Below, piece by piece: positions 12,763 through 50,647 of a DNA stretch of 50,701 nucleotides. The notes beneath the pieces were generated by a model. That model was not told the origin of the DNA. It saw nothing but the letters and a program-made list of their open reading frames with translations, and searched no databases. The stretch spans positions 1-50,701 of the forward strand of contig CALVXT010000001.1 in NCBI GenBank assembly GCA_944371545.1, read 5' to 3'. This stretch comes from an uncultured Bacilli bacterium. GTDB taxonomy: Bacteria > Bacillota_I > Bacilli_A > RF39 > UBA660. The translations under genes and the position numbers were made by a program. Each line of letters opens with the position of its first letter. Position 1 is the stretch's first letter.

Positions 12763-14460
12763 TCACATTTTCTTAGGTATTTTTATACTTAATAAAGCTA
12801 ACATTTCTTTAATAACTTTATTTCCTAAGTTAAGTACAAATAACCAACTTTCTTTTTTCTTTTTATCTTCTAGATTATTTATATGATTCTTTTCATAAAA
12901 AGCATTCATATTTACACATAAATCATATAAATAATTTGCTAGTACAGATGGTAGTCTTGTACTATAACTATATTTTAAAGTATTTTCCAAATCTAATAAC
13001 TTTATTCTTAAATCTCGATCTTCTTTATTATATATATCTTTTTCTTCAAGTTCACAGGTTTCTGTTTCTTTTTCTAAAATACTTGCTATTCTTAAATAGG
13101 TATATAAAATATAAGGGCCTGTTTTACCTACTACTTCCGAAAATTTATTTAAATCAAAGATATAATCTTTTTCTCTATTGTTTTGTAAATCTGCAAATTT
13201 AATGATTGCATTTACTAGTATATCTAAGTCTTCTTCTGTCATGTTGTCATTTTTTTTTTTTGAAGTTAAGAAAGCATTTTTTGTTTCTTTAAATAGAGAA
13301 TCTAATTTCGGAGCGCTTCCAGCTCTAGTTTTGAATGGTTTGCCATCAGAGCCATTAACTGTTCCAAATCCGAGATGTTCAAAAGTAATCATGTCTGTAT
13401 ATCCTAGTTTTTCACATACTCTAAATAATTGTTTAAAGTGAAGACTTTGGCGCATATCTGTGACATAAATCATATTATCTGGATGAAAATCTTCTATTCT
13501 TTCATAAATCGTGCCTAAGTCAGTTGTTCCATAAAGATAGGCTCCATTACTTTTTTGATAAATTAATGGTGGAATTTCTAATTCATCTTCTGGTTTAGAT
13601 ACTTCAACAATCTTAGCTCCATTACTTGTAGTTAATAAATTCTTTTTATTTAATTCTTCTGTCACCTTATCTATATAAGGATAGGCATCGGATTCTCCAT
13701 ACCATAAATCAAAATGAACATCTAAATATTCATAGATTTTTAAAATATCTTTTCCTGATACTTCACGAATTATTTTAAAATACTCTTGATACTCGGCATT
13801 TCCATCTTGTAGTTCTTTTGTTATTTCAGCACATCTTTTTTTTACTTGTTCGTCTTCTTTGCATAATGCGCTCATTTTTGGATAAATTTCGTCTAAAATC
13901 TCAATCGTAATATCTTCTTTTGCTATATTTTCTTTTTGTAACCCATATATTACTTGACCTATTTGTAACCCATAATCCCCTAAATGAACATCTCCAATGA
14001 CATCATGACCAAAATATTTTAATATTCTTTTAATTGATTCACCAACAATAGCACTTCTTAAATGACCCACATGAAGAGGTTTGGCAATATTTGGTCCACC
14101 ATAATCAATAATAATTTTCTTTTTCTCTGGCATATGAATATTGAATTTTTCTTTATAAAACATATCTTTTAAACGTTCATTTATAAATTTGTTACTTAAT
14201 GTAAAATTTATGAATCCAGGTTTAACTGCTTCTACTTTAGAAAAATCTTCTTCATCTTTATATATTTCTAAAAACTTACTAGCAATTTCTTCACTAATTT
14301 CATATGGAGATTTTCTGGCTATTTTGGCATAAGCAAAACAACCATCAAATTGATAATCACATAATTCTTTTCGATTAGAAACAATGATTTTTGCTTGTAA
14401 ATCATATTTTAAATCATTTAATACTTTTTGAAGTTTTTCTTCTATATATTCTATTATCAC
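12763..14460 (-). CDS. argS: Arginine--tRNA ligase
   Basis: Class I HIGH motif (NIAKPLHVGHLRS) and an ArgRS anticodon-binding C-terminus. Preceded by a ywiB-like gene, as in B. subtilis. Confidence 0.95.
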   Translation of the reverse strand: MIIEYIEEKLQKVLNDLKYDLQAKIIVSNRKELCDYQFDGCFAYAKIARKSPYEISEEIASKFLEIYKDEEDFSKVEAVKPGFINFTLSNKFINERLKDMFYKEKFNIHMPEKKKIIIDYGGPNIAKPLHVGHLRSAIVGESIKRILKYFGHDVIGDVHLGDYGLQIGQVIYGLQKENIAKEDITIEILDEIYPKMSALCKEDEQVKKRCAEITKELQDGNAEYQEYFKIIREVSGKDILKIYEYLDVHFDLWYGESDAYPYIDKVTEELNKKNLLTTSNGAKIVEVSKPEDELEIPPLIYQKSNGAYLYGTTDLGTIYERIEDFHPDNMIYVTDMRQSLHFKQLFRVCEKLGYTDMITFEHLGFGTVNGSDGKPFKTRAGSAPKLDSLFKETKNAFLTSKKKNDNMTEEDLDILVNAIIKFADLQNNREKDYIFDLNKFSEVVGKTGPYILYTYLRIASILEKETETCELEEKDIYNKEDRDLRIKLLDLENTLKYSYSTRLPSVLANYLYDLCVNMNAFYEKNHINNLEDKKKKESWLFVLNLGNKVIKEMLALLSIKIPKKM

Positions 14461-18551: not shown

Positions 18552-19784
18552 CTAATCATTTTTTTTAATATTAATTGTCATTTGATAATTTCCATTAAGG
18601 TCTACTTCATCTAAAGTTATTTGAAAACCTTGTTTTTGCATTTTATCAATCATATCTCGAACTTCATTAATAGCAGTTTTTAAATCTATTCCTTTTTCTT
18701 CTTCAACTATTTGCTTATAATTTGGATCTAATTTAATAACAGAATCCATTGGGTCAACAATTTTTTCGGTTGATGTTTCTTTAATTTCTTCAATTTTATT
18801 ATTTTCTGGAACTTGAGAATCTGAAAATAAAAATGGTATCACCGATTCTTCTTGTGGTTGTTGAGTGACTGGCTCTGATGGAGGTGTTGATGATCCGATA
18901 TCATCTAAAACCTCTATTTCATCCATTGCAGTATTATCATTTTGAGTAGATGATGGTGTTTCAATCATTTGCATATTTGCGGCTTCATCTTCTAAAAAGT
19001 TAAAAAATTTGTTTGGAATATTTCTTGGTTCTTCAGTTTTTATTTCAGACATATTTTCTTTTTGTTCATTTTCCATAGTTTTAACCTCTTTCGTTGGTTC
19101 TTTTTGATTTATATCACTAGAGTTGTTAATTATTTTTGTTACATCTGGTGCAATATTTACTAAAGGAACATCTTCATTTATTTCTCCTTTTGCTTTTTTT
19201 ATTTCTAAATCCAATTGTCGAACAGTAAGGCGCTTTGTGAGAATTTTTTGTAACCATTTTGGTTGTTCTTCTTTTGGTAAAACTAATAAACTTCTGGCAT
19301 GGCGTTCACTGATTTTTTCCTGTAATAATGCGTCTTGAACTTCAGGTGCTAAATTTAAAAGACGTAATTTATTAGCAATCGAACTTTGACTTACTCCCAT
19401 TTTTTCTGCAAGTTGTTCTTGAGTCATATACCCACGGTCTAATAAATTTTTATATGATTTTGCTTCTTCAATTGGTGTTAAATTTCTTCTTTGAATATTT
19501 TCTACTAAGGCAATTTCAGCACTTTTATTGTCGTCTATATCTGATATAATTGCAGGCACTTGTCTTAATCCTGCCATTGTTGCTGCTTTAAATCTTCTTT
19601 CTCCAGCAATAATTTCATATTTATTTCCTAGTCTTCTTAAAACTAAAGGTTGAATAATGCCATGCTGTTTAATTGATTCTGATAATTCTTTTAAACCTTC
19701 TTCATCAAATGCTAGTCGTGGTTGAAAACGATTTGGTATTATATCCTCTATTGCTACTTGAAGTACCTTTTGATCTGTATTCAC
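18552..19784 (-). CDS. noc: ParB-family protein of the Noc (nucleoid occlusion) type with a long internal insertion
   Basis: ParB N-domain with the arginine patch (IIAGERRFKAA). The HTH region GVSQSSIANKLRLLNLAPEVQDALLQEKISERHARSLL matches B. subtilis Noc (GKGQSTIANKLRLLKL...ITERHARAL) rather than Spo0J. The C-terminus (FQITLDEVDLNGNYQMTINI) is also Noc-like. Residues ~200-365 are acidic, Pro/Gln-rich extra sequence. Confidence 0.8.
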   Translation of the reverse strand: MNTDQKVLQVAIEDIIPNRFQPRLAFDEEGLKELSESIKQHGIIQPLVLRRLGNKYEIIAGERRFKAATMAGLRQVPAIISDIDDNKSAEIALVENIQRRNLTPIEEAKSYKNLLDRGYMTQEQLAEKMGVSQSSIANKLRLLNLAPEVQDALLQEKISERHARSLLVLPKEEQPKWLQKILTKRLTVRQLDLEIKKAKGEINEDVPLVNIAPDVTKIINNSSDINQKEPTKEVKTMENEQKENMSEIKTEEPRNIPNKFFNFLEDEAANMQMIETPSSTQNDNTAMDEIEVLDDIGSSTPPSEPVTQQPQEESVIPFLFSDSQVPENNKIEEIKETSTEKIVDPMDSVIKLDPNYKQIVEEEKGIDLKTAINEVRDMIDKMQKQGFQITLDEVDLNGNYQMTINIKKND

Positions 19785-21460: not shown

Positions 21461-23313
21461 TTATTCAATTTCTTTTTGAAATTCTTTTATATATTTTTTT
21501 CTTATTAATGGTAAAACTTGTTCAGTTAATTCTATAGTTGTATCTAAGGTACTTTTAAATGTAGTATCTATAAAACTACATTTTTTTTCTTTCTCTAAAA
21601 ATTGGTGATAAAAAAAGGTTAATGTATCATTAAATTTATTAATTTTATTAAAATCTGCAATACTATTTAATCCAAAACCTATTCTAGATAAATATTCTTT
21701 TTGCAATAAAACTAGAGGATCCATGTAATTTATAATGTGAAAATCAATTGATTGTTTGAATAAAGCTAAATATTTTCTTTGAATTTCCAAATAAGTATTT
21801 TTTGAGATTTCTTTATTTAAAAACTGAATATAACAGTGAATTAATTCATTTAATAAACCCCTTGTAAATACTATTCCTTTTATTTGAGAAATATTTTCTA
21901 AGTTAGAAGTATTTTCAATTAGTTTTATATCGAAATTTGCTATTTGAAAAAAGTCATATAAACTTTCTATGATTCTTGAATTATCATATTTTGGAGCTCC
22001 ACTAAAATCGATAACAAAAGATGGATTTGACGAGCATAATTTTTTTAGTTGGAGTAACTCTTGTCTTTGAGCGTTTATCTTTTTTAACTCTTGATAATAT
22101 TTTTCTTTTCCACAAAACACTTTATCTCTTAAAAAAAGATCTTCTTTTTTACCAAATACAAGTTCTAATGCTGCTTTTAAACGTTTAAAAATAGGTAGAT
22201 CTTTATTTTCATTAAAAATCAAACTTTTATAAATATTTGTATAATACCATTTTTGTTTTTCTTCTCCTCTTTTAAATGAAGAAAAATCTCTTTGACCATT
22301 TTTTTCAAATTTTAAATATAAATCTTCGACATTATTAATTTTATCAGCACATATAACTAATTTGTTTCGTAAAGGAAGTTTTTTTGTTTCTTCGATTGTA
22401 TGTTGTTTTCTTTCTTCCCAAGATAAAGATTTGTCTGGCTCAGATGCTCCCATAACTAAAGAGGCAATATCCCTACCAAATTCCTTTTCAATATCTTCTA
22501 TAGTATATTTTGTGTCTTCTACTACATCATGTAAATAACCTGCTGCGATGACACGATCATCAAAGCCATATTGTTCTAAAATCATAGCTACACTGATAGG
22601 ATGAATTATCATTGGTTTATCAGGTTCACTTTTTCTTTTTTGATCTTTATGAGCTTCAATTGCAAAATATTTTGCTTTTATTTTTATATCCTGTATATTA
22701 TTAACTTGTAAGTATTTTAAAACAAATTTAGCTTTACTGCTAAGTAATGCTTCAACTTCTGCGTTCATTTTTTCATAATCTGTATCTTTACAATATGTAG
22801 GAGCATATCCCATTTTTCCATATTTTTTCTTAATATAATTATATGCTCTTTCAATTTTTTGCTCTAATGTCAATTCCGGATAATTTTTACTTGAATATAA
22901 ATGTGTTCGTTCAATAGATTTATTTAAATTTGTCGTTCTATCTGCTGAAGATAGAATCTTTCCATAATCATTTCTTGGTGTATATTCTAAACTTGATCGA
23001 TGATCTTCAATTGCATCTTTCATTATTCTTCTTTGTTCTTCGGTAAAAAATTCTTTTATTTTTTCATCTTCATAAAAAATTTTTGCTGAAAGTATTTCAT
23101 GTTGATCTTTGTCAATATGATGTCAAGATCATGAAAAGAAGCGATTGTATAAAGCATATCTATGTTTATATTTTGAAATTGACTTGAGAATTCTAGACAC
23201 CTTCTTATTACATATTTAATGTGCTCTATTCCGTGTCCCTCATCATTTTTTGCATACAAGGGAAATATTTCATTTTCAATGTATTCTTTTAGTTTTGGAT
23301 TAATATTATTCAT
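21461..23313 (-). pseudogene. Frameshifted fusion gene: HD phosphohydrolase domain + RelA/SpoT-type (p)ppGpp hydrolase HD domain + unknown C-terminal domain
   Basis: The 85-aa ORF (23056-23313) carries H...HD (HGIEH ... ASFHDL). The 520-aa ORF frame is already open from 23122 (HHIDKDQHEILSAKIF...AIEDHRSS...SSADR), which continues the same HD family. It then has a SpoT-like HD_4 region (AHKDQKRK...HPISVA...AAGYLHDVVEDT). One missing nt near 23123 separates the two frames. Confidence 0.7.
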
Positions 23314-27824: not shown

Positions 27825-27838
27825 ATTTCCCGGGAAAT
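27825..27838. promoter_or_regulatory. Noc-binding-site (NBS) palindrome ATTTCCCGGGAAAT, intergenic mnmE-jag
   Basis: Exact match to the 14-bp B. subtilis NBS consensus. Embedded in the 22-bp palindrome AATTATTTCCCGGGAAATAATT (27821-27842). Confidence 0.75.
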
Positions 27839-30072: not shown

Positions 30073-30230
30073 TGTGAATAATTGTCCACATATGCTATAA
30101 GCATTTTTTTCTTTATTTTCGTCACTTTTTCTTCAGTTATAAACATATTCACAGTATGTGGATAATTTATTTTCACATTATCCACTAATTCACATTAAAA
30201 ATTTTTTTGAAATGTTGATAATGTGGATAA
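30073..30230. promoter_or_regulatory. oriC left module: DnaA-box cluster upstream of dnaA
   Basis: Boxes against consensus TTATCCACA/TGTGGATAA: 30073 TGTGAATAA, 30082 TTGTCCACA, 30157 TGTGGATAA (perfect), 30178 TTATCCACT, 30222 TGTGGATAA (perfect). Confidence 0.85.
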
Positions 30231-30367
30231 GTGTATTTTTTTCTTTTATTATCTTGGTTTCTTTTGTTGATAAGTTGTGAATAGTGTGTTAGTATACATT
30301 TTAGTCTTTTAAATTGAAAGAAAAAAGTGTAGAATATTGTTGACAAATGTTAAAGCGGGGTGGTTTC

Positions 30368-31756
30368 ATGGGCGAAAAAGATCTTTGGCAATCTGTATTA
30401 GACGAGATATATCCAGAAGTTAATACCGCTTCTTTTCATGCTTGGTTTAATGATTTGAAGTTGATTAAAATACAAAATAATAAGGTTTTTATTCAAGTGC
30501 CTATGGAAATACATAAACGTATTTTAACCCAAAATTATTATACTTTATTAGATGATGCTTTTTATAAAATAACAAATCATAATTATGAATTTGAATTTTT
30601 ATTAAAAGAAGAAGTTGAAACTGAAGAGGAAAAAGAAACAGTCAATGTGGATAATGTGGATAACTTAGTAAATGTTGTTAATACACCGACTGTTACAGTT
30701 GAAAGAGAATGGGAATCAAACTTAATTCCTGATTTAAATTTTGATAATTATATAGTAGGGGACTCCAATAGACTGGCTAAAACGGCTGGAATGATTGTTG
30801 CTGAACAACCTGGAAAAGTTCATAATCCCTTATTTATATATGGTAAAAGTGGGTTAGGGAAGACTCATTTAATGCATGCAATAGGGAATTATATAGCTAC
30901 TCACTCTAATAAAAAGGTTTTATACACAACTAGTGAAATGTTTAAGGATGATTATATTAATATTATTAGTAATGAAAATAAAGGAAATAATATTCAGGTT
31001 GCTTCAGATTTTAAGAAGAAATATCGTGAAGTTGATGTGTTAATAATTGATGATATTCAATATTTAGTTGGAGCAGAGAAGACTCAACAGGAATTTTTCC
31101 ATACTTTTAATGCATTACATCAAGCAAATAAACAAATAATTATTAGTTCTGATCGTAGTCCTGATGACTTAAAATTATTAGAAGAGAGATTACGTAGTCG
31201 TTTTATGTGGGGACTACCTGTGGATATTTATCCACCGGATTTTGAACTTCGATGTAAAATTATTCGTTCAAAATTAAAAAATACTTCCATTGTTAATAAG
31301 ATTGATGAAAATGTTATTGAATACATTGCTAATAACTGTCAAAATGATGTTAGATTCCTTGAAGGGGCGGTAAATAGACTACTTGCATATACTGCAATGA
31401 TTGTACCAGAAGTTGTTGATTTAAACTTTGCTATTGAAGCTTTAGCGGACTTTGTGAATCATAATATTTATACACGTAGTAGTATTGAAGGAATTCAAAA
31501 AGCTGTCGCAGATTATTATAAAATCACTGTCGATGATTTAAAGGGAAAGAAAAGAAGCGCAAATATTGCTTATCCTAGGCAAATAGCTATGTATTTATCA
31601 AGAACACTTACTGAGGAAAACTTAAATCGTATCGGTTTAGAATTTGGTGGAAGAGATCATTCGACAGTTATCCACGCTTGTGATAAAATAACAAGTGATT
31701 TAAAGAAAAATCCTGCATTAGAACAGCAATTGAAGGAGATTCAAAATAAAATGTAA
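30368..31756 (+). CDS. dnaA: Chromosomal replication initiator protein DnaA
   Basis: AAA+ motifs (GKSGLGKTHL, LIIDDIQ) and the domain IV DnaA signature (IAYPRQIAMYL, GGRDHSTV). ATG 30368 lies behind GGGGTGG; the track ORF opens at 30347. Confidence 0.95.
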   Translation: MGEKDLWQSVLDEIYPEVNTASFHAWFNDLKLIKIQNNKVFIQVPMEIHKRILTQNYYTLLDDAFYKITNHNYEFEFLLKEEVETEEEKETVNVDNVDNLVNVVNTPTVTVEREWESNLIPDLNFDNYIVGDSNRLAKTAGMIVAEQPGKVHNPLFIYGKSGLGKTHLMHAIGNYIATHSNKKVLYTTSEMFKDDYINIISNENKGNNIQVASDFKKKYREVDVLIIDDIQYLVGAEKTQQEFFHTFNALHQANKQIIISSDRSPDDLKLLEERLRSRFMWGLPVDIYPPDFELRCKIIRSKLKNTSIVNKIDENVIEYIANNCQNDVRFLEGAVNRLLAYTAMIVPEVVDLNFAIEALADFVNHNIYTRSSIEGIQKAVADYYKITVDDLKGKKRSANIAYPRQIAMYLSRTLTEENLNRIGLEFGGRDHSTVIHACDKITSDLKKNPALEQQLKEIQNKM

Positions 31757-31855
31757 TGTGGATAATTTTTATTGATGTGAATAATTATGCACATGAAAAT
31801 TCGACAAAATCTTTAAGTTTTAAAGGAATTTTAAGAGTTATGCACATTATCCACA
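31757..31855. promoter_or_regulatory. oriC right module: DnaA-box cluster between dnaA and dnaN, followed by an AT-rich stretch
   Basis: Boxes: 31757 TGTGGATAA (perfect), 31776 TGTGAATAA, 31785 TTATGCACA, 31838 TTATGCACA, 31847 TTATCCACA (perfect). A nearly pure A/T stretch follows at 31856-31890 and is a candidate unwinding element. Confidence 0.8.
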
Positions 31856-33046: not shown

Positions 33047-33152
33047 GTTTTAAAAATTAATAAATTTAAAATTTGTTTTCTTTTTTTCGACATTTTTTTT
33101 CTCTTTTATATGGTAGGGTAAGAACAATTTTCATATGAATGGGGGAAAAATT

Positions 33153-33614
33153 ATGCAAACACAATATGAAATTAATGATGAAACTATGGCAATTTTAACT
33201 ATTGATAAAAATTATTCAGAAGTTTATGAGATGAATGACCATTATATTGTTGAACAGGCTTCAAATAAAATTATGGAAGATAGTTGTCGTTATTTCGGGA
33301 GTTCTTTAGAGGGGAGAAGGAAAGGTACGGAATATATGATTGGAGTTAACTATAAAGCTCCAATTATTGTGGAAGAATCTAAAGAAATTATTTTTTTTCC
33401 AACTTCTAGTACTCGAGAAAATAGTAATTGGATTCGTTTAAAATATATTAAATCTTATTACCGTGATGGTGATGTCATTTTTATTGTTTTTGAAAATGGT
33501 ACAAAAATTGCTATAAAAACGTCTTATGGAATTATCGATAATCAAGTTTTACGAGCTACGCGGTTAGAAAGTGCTTTAAGAGGGCGAAAAACATCAAAAA
33601 AAACTGTTATGTAG
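33153..33614 (+). CDS. comK: ComK-family competence transcription factor
   Basis: Matches to B. subtilis ComK: SCRYFGSSLEGRRKGT vs SCRFFGSSYAGRKAGT, KAPIIVEESKEIIFFPTSS vs KPPIMVDPSNQIFLFPTLS, and NQVLRATRL vs NQVYRTAWL. ATG 33153 lies behind GGGGGA. Confidence 0.85.
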   Translation: MQTQYEINDETMAILTIDKNYSEVYEMNDHYIVEQASNKIMEDSCRYFGSSLEGRRKGTEYMIGVNYKAPIIVEESKEIIFFPTSSTRENSNWIRLKYIKSYYRDGDVIFIVFENGTKIAIKTSYGIIDNQVLRATRLESALRGRKTSKKTVM

Positions 33615-36723: not shown

Positions 36724-39168
36724 ATGGATCGTTTAGAAAAAAATAATATTGTTACAGAAGTTAGTAAATCTTTTGTTGATTATTCTGTAAGTGTTATAAC
36801 CTCGCGTGCTTTACCGGATTTACGAGATGGTTTAAAACCTGTTCACCGAAGAATTTTATATTCTATGTATCAATCTGGTTATACTTATGATAAACAACAT
36901 AAAAAATGTGCTCGTATCGTTGGAGATGTCATGGGTAAATTTCACCCTCATGGTGATTCTTCAATATATGATGCATTAGTACGTATGGCTCAGGATTTTA
37001 GTTATAGATATCCACTTATAGATGGACATGGAAACTTTGGTAATATGGATGGAGATGGCGCAGCTGCAATGCGTTATACTGAATCTAGATTGGCTAAAAT
37101 TTCCGCAGAATTACTAAGAGATATTAATAAAAATACTGTGGATATGACTCCAAACTTTGATGAATTAGAAGAGGAACCTGTTGTTTTACCTAGTAGATTT
37201 CCAAATATATTGGTAAATGGTACAATGGGTATTGCTGTTGGTATGGCGACGAATATTCCTCCACATAATTTGGGTGAAGTAATTGATGGATGTGTTGCTT
37301 ATATTGATAATCCTGAAATTGATACACTTGGATTGATGCAATATATAAAAGGACCAGATTTTCCAACTGGTGCAACGATTTTAGGTAATAGCGGTATTAA
37401 AAAAGCATATGAAACTGGAAGAGGAACAATTACTATTCGTAGTAAGGCTAATATAGAAGAGAAGAATGGCCGTTTTCAAATTGTTTTTGAAGAAGTTCCT
37501 TATGGTGTAAATACTTTAGAATTAAAAAATAAAGTTGCAGAATTAGTTCATAATAAGGTAATTGATGGAATCGCAGATTATCATTCAGATTTAAAAGATG
37601 GAATTAAAATAACTATTACTTTAAAGAGAGATGCTAATCCTCAAGTTGTTTTAAATAATTTATATAAACATACTTCTTTTCAAATTTCTTATGGAATCAT
37701 TTTGCTAATGATTGATCAAGGAGTTCCTAAAACATTAGGGTTAAAGGACATTATTAGTAAGTATATAGATTTTCAAAGAGAAGTTATTGTTCGTAGAACT
37801 CGGTTTGATTTAGAAAAAGCTGAAGCACGTGTTCATATTTTAGAAGGATTAAAAATAGCTTTAGATCATATCGATGAAGTTATTAAGATTATTCGTGGTA
37901 GTAGAACTGATGTTCAAGCTAAAGAAGCTTTAATGAGTCGTTTTGGGCTTTCAGAGATTCAAAGTGATGCAATTCTTGAGATGAGATTACGTCGTCTTAC
38001 TGGATTAGAAAAAGATAAAATAGAAGCTGAATTGGCTGAATTATTAAAGAAAATTGAAGAATACAAAGAAATTTTAGCTAGTGATGAAAAAGTTTTAGCA
38101 ATTATTCGTGCTGAATTATTAGAAATTAAGGAAAAATATGCTGATGAACGTCGTACAAATATTGATATGACTGCTATTGAGTATATTGAGGATGAATCTT
38201 TAATTCCTGAAGAAAATATTATGATTGCTTTAACAAACAAGGGATATATTAAGAGAACAACTACAGATACTTTTAAATCTCAAAATAGAGGTGGTGTAGG
38301 TGTTAAGGGAATGGCAACTAATGAAGAGGATTTTGTAGAGCATTTACTTAACTTATCCACTCATGATTATGTATTGTTCTTTACAAATAAAGGTAAAGTA
38401 TATCGTTTAAAAGGATATGAAATTCCAGAGTTTAGTCGTCAATCTAAGGGAATTCCAGTTATCAACTTATTACAAATAGATAAAGATGAGTCTATTAATT
38501 CTATGATTAAAATTACTAAGGATGATGAATCTAAGTTCTTGTTATTTGCGACTCGTAAGGGAATTGTTAAGAAAACTGCTTTGGAGGAATTTGAAAATAT
38601 TCGAACAAATGGTAAAATTTGTATTACATTACGGGAAAATGATGAGTTAATTAGCGTTCGTAAGACTAAAGGTAATGATATGATATTACTAGGTTCTAGT
38701 TCAGGCAGAATGGTTAAGTTTAATGAATCGGAAATTCGTGTAATGGGAAGAACCGCTAGTGGTGTACGAGGAATTAATTTAGACGGTAATGTTTGTATTG
38801 GAGCAGAAATTGCTACTGATGATGATAAAATATTGATTGTTACTGAAAAAGGATACGGAAAACAAACAAATGTTCGCGAATATAGACAGACAAGTCGTGG
38901 TAGTAAAGGGGTTAAGGCATTAAATATTACTGATAAAAATGGTTCTATAGCTGCCTTTAAGTTAGTTGGTGAAAATAACGATGTAGTTATTATTACAAAT
39001 ACTGGAATGTTAATTCGATTGCCATTAGATCAAGTTTCTACTTTAGGTCGTGTAACTCAAGGTGTACGTTTGATTCATTTAAAAGATAATCAAAATGTAG
39101 CGACGATTAGTATAGTTGAACATGAAGAAAAAGAATTGGTTAATCAAGAAGAAGAATCAGAGTCTTAA
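36724..39168 (+). CDS. gyrA: DNA gyrase subunit A
   Basis: Active-site region [23 protein letters not shown], and C-terminal beta-pinwheel repeats. Confidence 0.97.
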
Positions 39169-39186
39169 TAAACTGATTCTTTTTTT
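39154..39186 (+). terminator. Rho-independent terminator at the end of gyrA
   Basis: Stem GAATCAG (39154-39160) / CTGATTC (39173-39179), with the stop codon in the loop, then T7. Confidence 0.6.
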
Positions 39187-39187
39187 A

Positions 39188-39203
39188 TGTTTCACGTGAA
39201 ACA
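39188..39203. promoter_or_regulatory. parS 1
   Basis: TGTTTCACGTGAAACA, a perfect 16-bp palindrome. Confidence 0.9.
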
Positions 39204-39234
39204 TTAGTATTTTGAATTTAATGTTTATAACCAA

Positions 39235-39250
39235 TGTTTCACGTGAAACT
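39235..39250. promoter_or_regulatory. parS 2
   Basis: TGTTTCACGTGAAACT, with one terminal mismatch. Confidence 0.85.
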
Positions 39251-39293
39251 ATATTTAATTTGTTTTAAATATCTTGAATGTGTATAAGTTATA

Positions 39294-39309
39294 TGTTCCA
39301 CGTGAAACA
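39294..39309. promoter_or_regulatory. parS 3
   Basis: TGTTCCACGTGAAACA, identical to the canonical B. subtilis parS. Confidence 0.9.
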
Positions 39310-39470
39310 TATCTAAGTTTTACTGATTTTATTTATATGTAATAAAATCAATTTGTTAATAATTATCTTTGTTTTAATATATTATTTTGAATTAATATCA
39401 TTTTTATATAAGTATATAATTTGTTTTTTTCTTCAATATTATTTATTTTAAATGAAGTGTTTATAACTCA

Positions 39471-39486
39471 TGTTCCACGTGAAACA
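39471..39486. promoter_or_regulatory. parS 4
   Basis: TGTTCCACGTGAAACA, identical to the canonical B. subtilis parS. Confidence 0.9.
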
Positions 39487-39565
39487 TATATGTTTTTTTA
39501 TGAAATTATTTTTTTATAAATATTTTTTATAAATTTCTTTTTTTTGTTTCCACTGTTGATAACAA

Positions 39566-39581
39566 TGTTTCACGTGAAACG
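39566..39581. promoter_or_regulatory. parS 5
   Basis: TGTTTCACGTGAAACG, with one terminal mismatch. Confidence 0.85.
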
Positions 39582-39788
39582 TTGGATAAAATTTATTTTA
39601 AAATTTTGTTTATTTTTTACTAAAAATTTTAATACTTTTTTATATTATAGTGAATATGTGTATAAGTTTTATATTTTTCGTTAGTAAATAAGAATATTTC
39701 TTTATTATAAAAATGATTCAATCATTTATTATTTTTTTGTAATAATAATTTGCTTCGTTTTTTTAGTTGTGAAAATTTCAAAATAAAT

Positions 39789-39802
39789 ATTTCCCGGGAA
39801 AT
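39789..39802. promoter_or_regulatory. Noc-binding-site palindrome ATTTCCCGGGAAAT inside the parS array
   Basis: Exact 14-mer, located 22 nt upstream of parS 6. Confidence 0.75.
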
Positions 39803-39824
39803 AATTTTGATGTTTATAACCCGA

Positions 39825-39840
39825 TGTTTCACGTGGAACA
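39825..39840. promoter_or_regulatory. parS 6
   Basis: TGTTTCACGTGGAACA, the reverse complement of the canonical TGTTCCACGTGAAACA. Confidence 0.9.
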
Positions 39841-39935
39841 TATGAAAAAATGTTTTTTTTTGAAAGTTTATAACTATTTTTAGAAAAAATTAAGACATCT
39901 TTTAAAAAAATCATTATTTATTTGGAATTTCACAA

Positions 39936-39951
39936 TGTTTCACGTGAAACG
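39936..39951. promoter_or_regulatory. parS 7
   Basis: TGTTTCACGTGAAACG, with one terminal mismatch. Confidence 0.85.
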
Positions 39952-39998
39952 TTATAAAATATGTTGAAACTATGATTCTTTTTTGATAAAATTAATAC

Positions 39999-40069
39999 GT
40001 GCAACAAATATATTGTAATCTGGTCAGGATCGGAAGATAGCAGCCACGTCAATCCCTGTTTGTGTGCAC
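39999..40069 (+). ncRNA. ffs: Small (4.5S-type) signal recognition particle RNA
   Basis: Conserved domain IV core CUGGUCAGGAUCGGAAGAUAGCAGCC. It is closed by the terminal helix GUGCA...UGCAC and followed by T7 (40070-40076). Confidence 0.85.
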
Positions 40070-40089
40070 TTTTTTTATGGAGGAAAATC

Positions 40090-42224: not shown

Positions 42225-42521
42225 ATGAATATGCAAAGTATTATGGCACAAGCTCAAAAAATGCAAAGAGATTTACAAAAAAAGAAGGAAGAAATTAATG
42301 CTCAATTATTTCCCGGGAAATATGAGTTTGTTGAAGTGACGTTAAATGGTAAGAAAGAAATGGTAAGATGTAAGATTGATAAAGAGCAATTGGATGCTTC
42401 AGATATTGAACTTTTAGAAGATTTTATTGTATTAGCAACAAAAGATGCAATTCAAAAAATTGATAAAGAATTTCAAGCAAAAATGGGACAATATGCTGGA
42501 ATGTTAGATGGTTTGATGTAA
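42225..42521 (+). CDS. ybaB: YbaB/EbfC-family nucleoid-associated protein
   Basis: 98 aa, with the MQKMQRDLQKKKEE N-terminus typical of the family. Located between dnaX and recR. Confidence 0.9.
   Translation: MNMQSIMAQAQKMQRDLQKKKEEINAQLFPGKYEFVEVTLNGKKEMVRCKIDKEQLDASDIELLEDFIVLATKDAIQKIDKEFQAKMGQYAGMLDGLM
42308..42321. promoter_or_regulatory. Noc-binding-site palindrome ATTTCCCGGGAAAT inside ybaB
   Basis: Exact 14-mer. It encodes LFPGKY in the ybaB frame. Confidence 0.7.
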
Positions 42522-45015: not shown

Positions 45016-45709
45016 TTGGTTGTTTGATTATCCAAATTTAAAAATATATCAATATCAAGAAGGGTTTAAGTTTTCTTTAGATTCAATTTTGTTAGCAGAA
45101 TTTGCTACGATTCGAAAATCAGATGAAAAAATACTTGATTTATGTACTGGAAATGGAGTAATACCTATTCTATTACATTTTAAATATCAAAAAAATATAG
45201 TAGGAGTAGAACTTCAAAAAGAAATTGCCAGTTTAGCTAGAGATTCAGTAAAGGAAAACGGTATGGAAGATGCTATTTCCATTATTGAGGATAATGTTTT
45301 AGAGTTGAAAAATTATTTCCCGGGAAATAATTTTGATGTTGTTCTTTCAAATCCTCCTTATTTTAAGTTTCATCATCCGAATTTTGTGAATCAAAATTCT
45401 TTAAAAAGTATCGCTAGACATGAAGTTACTATTTGTTTAGAACAATTAATTGAAATGGCTAGTTATTTACTAAAAAATAAAGGAAGGTTTTATTTAGTAC
45501 ATATTCCAGAGCGATTGGATGAAATTATTGTTTATGCAAATAAGTATGGATTTGGAATAAAAAAAATTCAATTTATTCATTCTAAAATATCTGAGCCACC
45601 TATCATTGTATTGGTAGCTTTAGTAAAAAATGGTAGATTTGGTTGTCGAATCTGCCCTCCACTTTCTATTGAGGGAGTAGAGTCTTATCAAAATTTATTT
45701 AAGAATTGA
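44996..45709 (+). CDS. SAM-dependent methyltransferase, YabB/TrmN6-like (tRNA m6A37)
   Basis: ILDLCTGNGVIPI SAM motif and NPPY (LSNPPYF). Synteny with B. subtilis yabB. Confidence 0.8.
   Translation: MMKKQLNWLFDYPNLKIYQYQEGFKFSLDSILLAEFATIRKSDEKILDLCTGNGVIPILLHFKYQKNIVGVELQKEIASLARDSVKENGMEDAISIIEDNVLELKNYFPGNNFDVVLSNPPYFKFHHPNFVNQNSLKSIARHEVTICLEQLIEMASYLLKNKGRFYLVHIPERLDEIIVYANKYGFGIKKIQFIHSKISEPPIIVLVALVKNGRFGCRICPPLSIEGVESYQNLFKN
45315..45328. promoter_or_regulatory. Noc-binding-site palindrome ATTTCCCGGGAAAT inside the methyltransferase gene
   Basis: Exact 14-mer at the centre of the 26-bp palindrome AAAATTATTTCCCGGGAAATAATTTT. It encodes YFPGNN. Confidence 0.7.
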
Positions 45710-50185: not shown

Positions 50186-50647
50186 ATGATGAAAGTTACA
50201 AATGACTTCTATAGACAATTTGAGGAGTTAAGTAATAAATTAGATGAACTAATTAAAGAAAATAAAAATATAAATACTACTCATAAAAACGAAATAAAAA
50301 AATTAAAACAAGATTTAAAGAAAGAATTTAAACAAGAAAAAGAAGAATTAAAAACCACTATAACTAATTTAGAAAAAATCATAAAAGAAAAAGATGAACT
50401 TATAGAAAAACTACTAAATGAAATTGATAGATTAAAAAATCAAATAAATAAAGATAGTAGTAATTCTAGTAAACCACCCTCAACAGATACAAGAAAAAAA
50501 GAAAAAAGTGGAGCCAATTTATATAATTCTAGAAAAAAGACAGATAAGAAAATAGGAGGACAAAAAGGTCACAAAGGACATAGCCTTACTAAAGATAAAG
50601 TTGAAAAGATAATAAAAGATAATCTTGGATTGTCAACACTTTTTTAG
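50186..50647 (+). mobile_element. IS66-family transposase, N-terminal fragment only
   Basis: Coiled-coil N-terminus followed by SSNSSKPPSTD ... GGQKGHKGHSL, typical of IS66 TnpC N-termini. The ORF stops at 50647, before any catalytic domain. Confidence 0.55.

Follow-up and report, generated by a model that had tools for sequence, protein, structure and literature searches.

A parS array between gyrA and ffs as the probable chromosomal centromere of a lineage of uncultured Bacilli

Seven parS Sites in the gyrA–ffs Spacer

The stretch of DNA analysed here (the window) is an entire metagenomic contig of 50,701 bp (GenBank assembly GCA_944371545.1, contig CALVXT010000001.1, positions 1–50,701) from the origin region of an uncultured, spore-forming Bacilli bacterium (RF39; UBA660) with ~27% GC. 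The element in question is an array of seven parS sites, the palindromes bound by the partition protein ParB, in the spacer between gyrA and the signal recognition particle (SRP) RNA gene ffs. The array and its bounds comprise the following features, in which NBS stands for Noc-binding site.

39154–39186, plus strand: gyrA terminator-like hairpin (GAATCAG-12 nt-CTGATTC, then T7), read by eye; left bound of the array
39188–39203, no strand: parS1, TGTTTCACGTGAAACA, a perfect palindrome (18 bp with the flanking A/T) directly after the T-run of the gyrA terminator
39235–39250, no strand: parS2, TGTTTCACGTGAAACT, 1 mismatch
39294–39309, no strand: parS3, TGTTCCACGTGAAACA
39471–39486, no strand: parS4, TGTTCCACGTGAAACA
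39566–39581, no strand: parS5, TGTTTCACGTGAAACG, 1 mismatch
39825–39840, no strand: parS6, TGTTTCACGTGGAACA, member of a compact NBS/DnaA-box-like/parS triple site
39936–39951, no strand: parS7, TGTTTCACGTGAAACG, 1 mismatch, 13 bp upstream of the −35 hexamer of the ffs promoter
39964–39992, plus strand: likely ffs promoter (TTGAAA-17-TAAAAT, extended TG); right bound of the array

The seven 16-mers lie within 764 bp (starts at 39188, 39235, 39294, 39471, 39566, 39825 and 39936), each with 0–1 mismatch to the consensus TGTTNCACGTGAAACA, and have centre-to-centre spacings of 47, 59, 177, 95, 259 and 111 bp. A previous sequence-only reading had reported these sites, and its coordinates, sequences and spacings were all correct. 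It had also found no other full match, and no further parS with ≤2 mismatches was present in the whole window, where the chance expectation at this threshold was 0.09 matches (mean of 100 dinucleotide shuffles). The spacer that holds the array spans 824 bp (39169–39992) between the end of gyrA at 39168 and ffs at 39993–40078 (Rfam, 55 bits). Its open reading frames (ORFs) are of low complexity and ≤61 aa in length and coding sequence was rejected as an identity, in agreement with the earlier description of a noncoding spacer between the gyrA terminator and the SRP RNA gene. The terminator hairpin was skipped by the terminator scan because its loop exceeds 8 nt. GC skew, which switches near 30 kb (minimum at ~30.1 kb, at dnaA), together with DnaA-box clusters, places the array (39.2–39.95 kb) ~9 kb to the right of oriC on the right replichore, and in the window plus a 10-kb extension on its right the array is the sole parS locus within −30/+30 kb of oriC.

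Four further metagenome assemblies, from different samples and assemblers, carried the array, with seven sites in L007 and L008, five at ≤1 mismatch in L009 and a cut array in L010, and it was also present in the GTDB representative (L011). Homologous arrays were spanned by two long-read (metaFlye) assemblies (L050 and L068). An assembly artefact, which the sequence-only reading had named as a possible refutation, was rejected on these grounds, and small indel differences among the independent assemblies likewise exclude it.

Conservation of the Array Across Relatives

A GyrA-seeded scan yielded a comparative set of 80 loci from uncultured low-GC Bacilli, one genome per species, among which the named organisms were Candidatus Ventrenecus, Candidatus Onthousia, Candidatus Scybalousia, Clostridium sp. 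CAG:710 and Mycoplasma sp. CAG:472. Spacer counts refer to the 38 loci in which a simple ffs motif search located ffs ≤4 kb downstream of gyrA. Comparison of the gyrA–ffs spacer in related genomes, as the earlier reading had proposed, revealed at least two parS sites in 35 of the 38 species (median 5, maximum 11; median spacer 824 bp) and at least one NBS in 19 of the 38 loci. Throughout the 22-kb loci of the relatives, parS was essentially restricted to the region just downstream of gyrA. A metagenome scan for parS-N13–43-NBS gave the same picture, with ~115 of the 120 matches listed lying between gyrA and dnaX in hosts of 21–31% GC whose GyrA identity ranged, among the matches listed, from 100% down to ~50%. 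Uncultured low-GC gut Bacilli that keep the array at the gyrA–ffs position number well over a hundred, and retention of one position across the whole lineage shows that the segment is under strong selection.

Conservation within the array is centred on the palindrome, a sign of purifying selection on the sites. Across 350 parS sites from 73 species, the sole fixed-position conservation was the 18-bp palindrome A-TGTTYCACGTGRAACA-T, whose outer positions (−1 and +16) were 98–100% A/T even though they had not been used in site selection. No lineage-wide flanking motif at a fixed offset from parS was found in this set, and the companion motifs described below are clade-specific.

The gyrA–ffs spacer is probably the chromosomal centromere of this lineage, that is, an array at which ParB is loaded, and we place the probability of this reading at roughly 80%. 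The sequence-only reading had already proposed a dedicated chromosomal centromere, a view that gains support from the location of these bona fide parS sites in a dedicated noncoding segment near oriC, from the lineage-wide conservation of the gyrA–ffs position and from the lack of a second parS locus within −30/+30 kb of oriC.

Array Architecture in Sister Clades

Several sister clades have a spacer built of regular tandem units of 76–127 bp, each with one parS and one NBS. The period was 125–127 bp in L023, L047, L050, L054, L068 and L087 and 76 bp in L032. In the long-read assembly L050 a 127-bp unit is present 12.8 times, and the other long-read assembly, L068, is a complete chromosome of 1.52 Mb. 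Within the 126-bp clade, the non-core part of the units was 86% identical within arrays compared to 76% between species, which suggests concerted evolution of the units, albeit modest. The clade of Mycoplasma sp. CAG:472 (L082:12430–13180; also L079–L081) has parS units of ~170 bp with another companion, CCTAAnnTATGCCAAAAAAC, part of which forms a hairpin (CTTATGCCAAAAAA...TTTTTTGGCATAAG), and no NBS was found anywhere in the 22-kb loci of this clade. One locus (L059) has a second small cluster of three parS and one NBS between tadA and dnaX (13280–13420) as well as a run of parS with a 37-bp period upstream of ffs. Many contigs of short-read metagenome-assembled genomes (MAGs) stop inside the array, 70–1400 bp downstream of gyrA (L025–L046, L055, L056, L062, L083, L085, L088); repeat arrays break short-read contigs, so the array copy numbers given here are lower bounds.

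Tandem duplication, together with the position of parS7 immediately upstream of the ffs promoter, could also be accommodated if the palindromes were operators for ffs or neighbouring genes, or selfish or slippage repeats. We regard this explanation as very improbable. The palindrome is the universal parS consensus and the lineage-wide conservation is confined to it, whereas promoter-like sites in the spacer are at chance level (11 found against 10.7 expected), and a promoter array was rejected. Dispersed repeats of the miniature inverted-repeat transposable element (MITE) or repetitive extragenic palindrome (REP) type were rejected since no copies occur elsewhere in the window or in the loci of the relatives. 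An array of clustered regularly interspaced short palindromic repeats (CRISPR) was rejected as well: the spacing in the window is irregular (47–259 bp) with unrelated spacers, and the sister clades repeat whole units, "spacers" included, neither of which is CRISPR-like.

Candidate Readers of parS

Residues that set the specificity of the two ParB-family branches have been mapped as R173/T179/A184/G201 in ParB and Q173/K179/K184/R201 in Noc, with Q173 and R201 specifying NBS bases and a single lysine at 179 or 184 being enough (PMC7383237). Two sister clades keep the ancestral trio left of oriC, where rsmG is followed in order by a long Noc-type protein (QKSR), Soj and ParB. Their ParB (293–295 aa; e.g., L229:19435–20316) has an LGRGL N-terminal peptide of the ParA-activating kind and the residues GKSRSHVTNMLGLLNL...SMGHAR, corresponding to R173/M179/N184/G201. 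Among the 120 relatives listed, 119 fit the pattern, of which 111 were R-M-x-G, seven R-M-x-S and one R-M-N-V. In the trio-bearing loci parS occurs solely in the gyrA–ffs array, ~20 kb from parB across oriC. On the evidence of these residues, the lineage appears to have a bona fide parS reader besides the Noc-type protein.

Several observations weigh against the centromere reading, most of them from the window's own genus. In the window, in Candidatus Ventrenecus and in a third MAG of the genus, noc is present with no soj-parB after it. No parS-type ParB or ParA for this genus was found in the contig, in its 10-kb right extension (which contains housekeeping and sporulation genes only) or in the noc neighbourhoods of two relatives, and no soj-parB remnants were present in 514 kb of genus loci. 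The only ParB-family protein on the contig is, by its residues, Noc-type. When the window and every locus were searched by tblastn with B. subtilis Soj and Spo0J sequences and with the Soj and ParB of the lineage, the Noc-type gene alone was recovered. Pfam and NCBIfam scans of unannotated window ORFs at relaxed thresholds revealed no second ParB and no ParA. A homologue search with the Noc-type protein was filled by its orthologues, and an exhaustive search against 50%-identity representatives returned long Noc-type proteins only. In addition to this, the copy numbers in short-read MAGs are uncertain, with many contigs ending inside the array.

The failure to find a ParB in the genus carries little weight because coverage came to only ~80 kb of a genome estimated at 1.5 Mb and because an orthologue would fall below the matches listed for the lineage ParB, which extend down to 66% identity. 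From the identities of the Noc N-terminal domain (56%), RsmG (46%) and MnmG (65%), an orthologue in the genus is expected at ~50–58%. As the sister clades carry soj-parB, the gap next to noc reflects a loss or relocation at the level of the genus. parS is perfectly kept among species of the genus whose intergenic flanks have otherwise diverged, which argues strongly that the genus has a reader, and the parB gene of the window species presumably lies elsewhere in its genome. The sequence-only reading had noted the absence of soj-spo0J from beside noc and of any visible cognate ParB nearby. Both points hold: the gene called noc encodes a protein with Noc-type residues (Q173/K179/R201), so that the contig shows no cognate ParB. 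The idea of an orphan centromere is weakened by the canonical soj-parB of the sister clades ~20 kb away across oriC.

The Noc-type protein is encoded as follows.

18552–19784, minus strand: long Noc-type ParB-family protein of 410 aa with ParB_N and HTH_ParB domains, near rsmG

This protein scored best against solved Noc structures (196 bits; 7NG0/7NFU), compared to 177 bits for Thermus Spo0J and 165 bits for B. subtilis Spo0J. Its specificity residues are Q173/K179/N184/R201 (QKNR), as they were in 120 of 120 orthologues among the matches listed, and of 150 representatives at 50% identity, the 139 that fit the residue pattern were all Q-K/R-x-R. The exact QKNR variant was not found in the part of the supplementary data of PMC7383237 that was available. 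By the published rule of Q173 and R201 plus one lysine, the protein is predicted to read NBS and not parS. It lacks a Noc-like N-terminal membrane helix, and an N-terminal extension is excluded because the maximal ORF begins 16 residues before PNRFQPR. In place of the helix there is a linker of ~150 aa with a conserved island, IPNKFFNFLEDEAANM, followed by a Noc-like C-terminal domain. The wider "long Noc" family (representatives P0121–P0270) is large and diverse (227–982 aa), likewise without an N-terminal membrane helix and with a variable acidic linker. The linker island, (P/T)N(K/R)FFNFLE(D/E), resembles SRFFGLGEKE at the N-terminus of B. subtilis Noc and may be a relocated membrane-targeting helix that substitutes for the N-terminal one.

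The atypical form of this protein, the absence of soj-parB or any remnant of it beside noc in three members of the genus, and the recovery of dual-specificity ParB variants by deep mutational scanning (PMC7383237) leave room for a different explanation, namely that the genus lost canonical ParB and that parS is read by a dual-specificity long Noc-type protein or by some other unrelated protein. This is improbable. Q173 is present in all 270 family members examined and is accompanied by K179 and R201 in nearly all of them, which is the NBS-specifying combination, whereas most of the published dual-specificity variants carry T or S at position 201 (PMC7383237). A separate parS-type ParB is encoded by sister clades that have the same arrays, and the unsuccessful search in the genus weighs little. 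In addition, 1.39 Mb of loci contained 324 pure parS and 212 pure NBS but not a single hybrid of parS-type and NBS-type half-sites, and this sharp separation of the two classes points to two separate readers.

NBS and DnaA-Box-Like Companions of the Array

Absent from the sequence-only reading, and the most interesting features of the locus, are an NBS inside the array, DnaA-box-like companions of parS and the alternation of parS and NBS in relatives; the lineage-wide occurrence of the array was also absent from that reading. The window contains the following sites.

39788–39803, no strand: NBS in the array, perfect 16 bp, TATTTCCCGGGAAATA
27825–27838, no strand: NBS outside the array, perfect, in the jag–mnmE intergenic region
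42308–42321, no strand: NBS outside the array, perfect, within ybaB; position kept in relatives
45315–45328, no strand: NBS outside the array, perfect, within a TrmN-like methyltransferase gene; position kept in relatives
39222–39230, plus strand: DnaA-box-like companion, TGTTTATAA, 4 bp upstream of parS2
39279–39287, plus strand: DnaA-box-like companion, TGTGTATAA, fits the TGTGNATAA consensus, 6 bp upstream of parS3
39458–39466, plus strand: DnaA-box-like companion, TGTTTATAA, 4 bp upstream of parS4
39554–39562, plus strand: DnaA-box-like companion, TGTTGATAA, 3 bp upstream of parS5
39657–39665, plus strand: orphan DnaA-box-like motif, TGTGTATAA, with no parS after it; repeat family D6
39811–39819, plus strand: DnaA-box-like companion, TGTTTATAA, between the NBS and parS6

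Four perfect NBS 14-mer cores were present in the window (27825, 39789, 42308 and 45315), where 0.33 would be expected even at ≤2 mismatches; their density near the origin is ~1 per 12 kb. The NBS, box and parS order around parS6 was also found in a sister species (L012). Five of the seven parS sites have a TGTKKATAA DnaA-box-like motif 3–6 bp upstream, on the plus strand every time, and parS1 and parS7 have no companion box. Over 20 nt the orphan motif shares 90% identity with the unit preceding parS3, and it may be a decayed unit. The motif was assigned to the DnaA-box family by the consensus TGTGNATAA (= TTATNCACA), which two of the six boxes of the window match and four miss by one mismatch, with none being canonical TGTGGATAA. 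In the window's genus, GT[GT]NATAA occurs ≤16 nt upstream of 49 of 78 parS sites, always on the same strand, compared to 0 of 78 at the mirror position and a background of 3.4%. Outside this genus-level clade the companion accompanied 2 of 273 parS sites. Sister species have perfect TGTGGATAAC boxes (TGTGGATAA(C)) at the companion position.

These boxes raise the question of whether the array is mainly a replication-control element, a DnaA-titrating DnaA-box cluster (DBC) of the datA kind at which adjacent ParB modulates DnaA occupancy and segregation is secondary. In favour of this are the strict orientation of the companion in the genus, the perfect boxes in sister species, the canonical TGTGGATAA boxes of the window's true oriC, which belong to the same box family as those of the array, and the synergy reported for initiation in B. 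subtilis between DBCs and Spo0J/parS, both of which lie near the origin (PMC3245932). On the other hand, the companion motif is genus-specific whereas parS is universal, most boxes of the window deviate from the consensus, and two of the seven parS sites lack one. We consider this explanation unlikely as the principal role of the array, though such a function could coexist with that of a centromere.

Proposed Mechanism and Comparison With Known Systems

The formation of CTP-dependent sliding clamps by ParB is established (PMC7053999, PMC7333895). If the gyrA–ffs array is the centromere, ParB dimers would recognise each 18-bp palindrome, close as CTP-dependent clamps and slide onto flanking DNA, as known ParB proteins do, and with seven loading sites in <800 bp the flux of loaded clamps would be multiplied. 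The partition complex that then forms over the origin region could recruit SMC and, where Soj exists, engage it for ParA-driven segregation. The loading pad, ~9 kb from oriC between the gyrA terminator and the ffs promoter, would be free of transcription. Turnover of the array proceeds by tandem duplication, which quickly alters parS spacing and copy number but leaves the palindromes constant.

ParB loading appears deliberately sited beside Noc-type clamp loading, DnaA binding or both. In B. subtilis, DnaA-box clusters and Spo0J, both origin-proximal, synergistically restrain initiation (PMC3245932), and Spo0J and Noc jointly block Z rings over unreplicated DNA (PMC6852036), while in S. aureus Noc restrains DnaA-dependent initiation (PMC5540599). 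These genetic data make a coupling of the array to other origin processes plausible, and the following is put forward as a hypothesis. As a tentative extension that we think has less than an even chance of being right, the array may be a hub in which two paralogous CTP-dependent clamps, ParB at parS and the Noc-type protein at NBS, load side by side on a track of ~≤1 kb, to which the window's genus adds DnaA boxes, thereby coupling segregation and SMC loading with membrane tethering of the origin, or its nucleoid occlusion, and with initiation control. In the genus such a hub would operate after Soj had been lost from its ancestral position, and the parS reader might itself have moved or been replaced; the DnaA-box companions would have taken over the link between Soj and DnaA.

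The array resembles, and departs from, several known systems. Origin-proximal parS clusters include those of B. subtilis (8 of 10 sites near oriC), P. aeruginosa (parS1–4), Caulobacter, Corynebacterium and Streptomyces. As in these ParABS systems, the array has the 16-bp consensus in multiple copies near the origin, and its relatives encode a parS-type ParB and Soj. With 7 sites in 764 bp here and as many as 11–13 units in relatives, it is, however, far denser. A single dedicated noncoding spacer holds the array, where known sites are scattered in and between genes over tens of kb, and it lies apart from parAB, ~20 kb away across oriC in the sister clades and with parAB absent from that site in this genus. 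Unlike the clusters named above, it also evolves as a tandem repeat and carries NBS and DnaA-box-like companions. Reviews report 1–23 parS sites per chromosome, with clusters near oriC (PMC7333895, PMC7022226), and bare clustering is consequently a further case of a known kind. The sequence-only reading had treated the multi-parS density as unusual, which needs qualifying in the light of these clusters and of an unrelated Firmicute of 49% GC (L180:741–4110, metagenome contig RCNI01008886.1), the clear exception among the loci compared, in which noc (QKQR), four parS and one NBS in ~900 bp of intergenic DNA, soj and spo0J (RSNG) follow one another. A parS cluster with an embedded NBS thus occurs in a classical parAB context too. 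No parAB adjoined the array in ~200 loci.

With the Noc–NBS system of B. subtilis and S. aureus the window shares the perfect NBS consensus and a ParB paralogue with Q173/K179/R201, but not the N-terminal amphipathic helix that defines Noc, in place of which there is the long linker with its KFFNFLED island. Plasmid tandem-repeat centromeres (F sopC, P1 parS, pSM19035 parS) are similar in having dense iterated sites in a short noncoding segment, as in the tandem units of the sister clades. The array differs in being chromosomal, syntenic across the lineage, composed of the chromosomal parS consensus and without an adjoining parAB operon. The DBCs of B. subtilis and datA of E. coli likewise have several DnaA-box-family motifs in an origin-proximal intergenic region, and a synergy of DBCs with Spo0J is known, whereas the boxes of the array are mostly one mismatch off, all point in the same direction, are each coupled to parS at 3–6 bp and are limited to one genus-level clade. 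In a literature that was incompletely covered, no published description was found of this site density, of confinement to one syntenic noncoding spacer away from parAB, of tandem-repeat turnover, of strict parS/NBS alternation or of oriented coupling between DnaA-box-like motifs and parS.

The reason for parS clustering and the control of site number figure among the listed open questions of the ParABS field (PMC7333895). The lineage offers a natural series of 0 to 11 or more parS at one fixed, syntenic noncoding locus from which the evolutionary dynamics can be read directly. The strict 1:1 interleaving of parS and NBS in the sister clades is a natural experiment on the way in which two paralogous sliding clamps, ParB and Noc, divide or contest the same stretch of DNA. 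In the window's genus, DnaA-box-like motifs are coupled to parS and soj-parB has gone from its ancestral site, a coincidence that gives a testable link between partition and initiation of the kind hinted at by the genetics of DBCs with Spo0J in B. subtilis and of Noc with DnaA in S. aureus. In practical terms, such arrays break short-read MAG assemblies at the origin.

Gene Order and Other Features of the Window

The remaining features of the origin region are as follows.

Left of oriC, minus strand: rnpA-yidC-jag-mnmE-mnmG-rsmG
30073–30273, no strand: oriC DnaA-box cluster upstream of dnaA, at the GC-skew minimum
31757–31855, no strand: second oriC DnaA-box cluster, in the dnaA–dnaN spacer
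Right of oriC, plus strand: dnaA-dnaN-comK-recF-gyrB-gyrA, the 824-bp spacer, ffs, tadA, dnaX, ybaB, recR, bofA, holB, ricT ... mfd, spoVT

Two abutting perfect DnaA boxes (TGTGGATAATGTGGATAA) lie within the dnaA coding sequence at 30646–30663. The ComK-family gene (33135–33614, plus strand) between dnaN and recF keeps its position across the lineage (L008, L223–L225, L229). At the left end of the contig (316–3244) there is an agr-like quorum-sensing module made up of an AgrB-like membrane protein (identified by eye), a HATPase_c_5 histidine kinase and a LytTR response regulator; it occurs on few short contigs only and is probably a strain-variable island. An ORF at the right end (50186–50647, plus strand) looks by eye like an N-terminal fragment of an IS66-type transposase. 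In other strains (L091–L098) metS directly follows spoVT, which suggests that the fragment is a strain-specific insertion sequence and the likely cause of the contig break. Finally, a gene for an HD-domain protein (RelA/SpoT-like hydrolase) lies between rsmG and noc (21461–23023, minus strand) as a 520-aa product with a separate 85-aa ORF. It is a single 617-aa product in another assembly (L002:3363–5216), and the difference may reflect a frameshift or a different start site.

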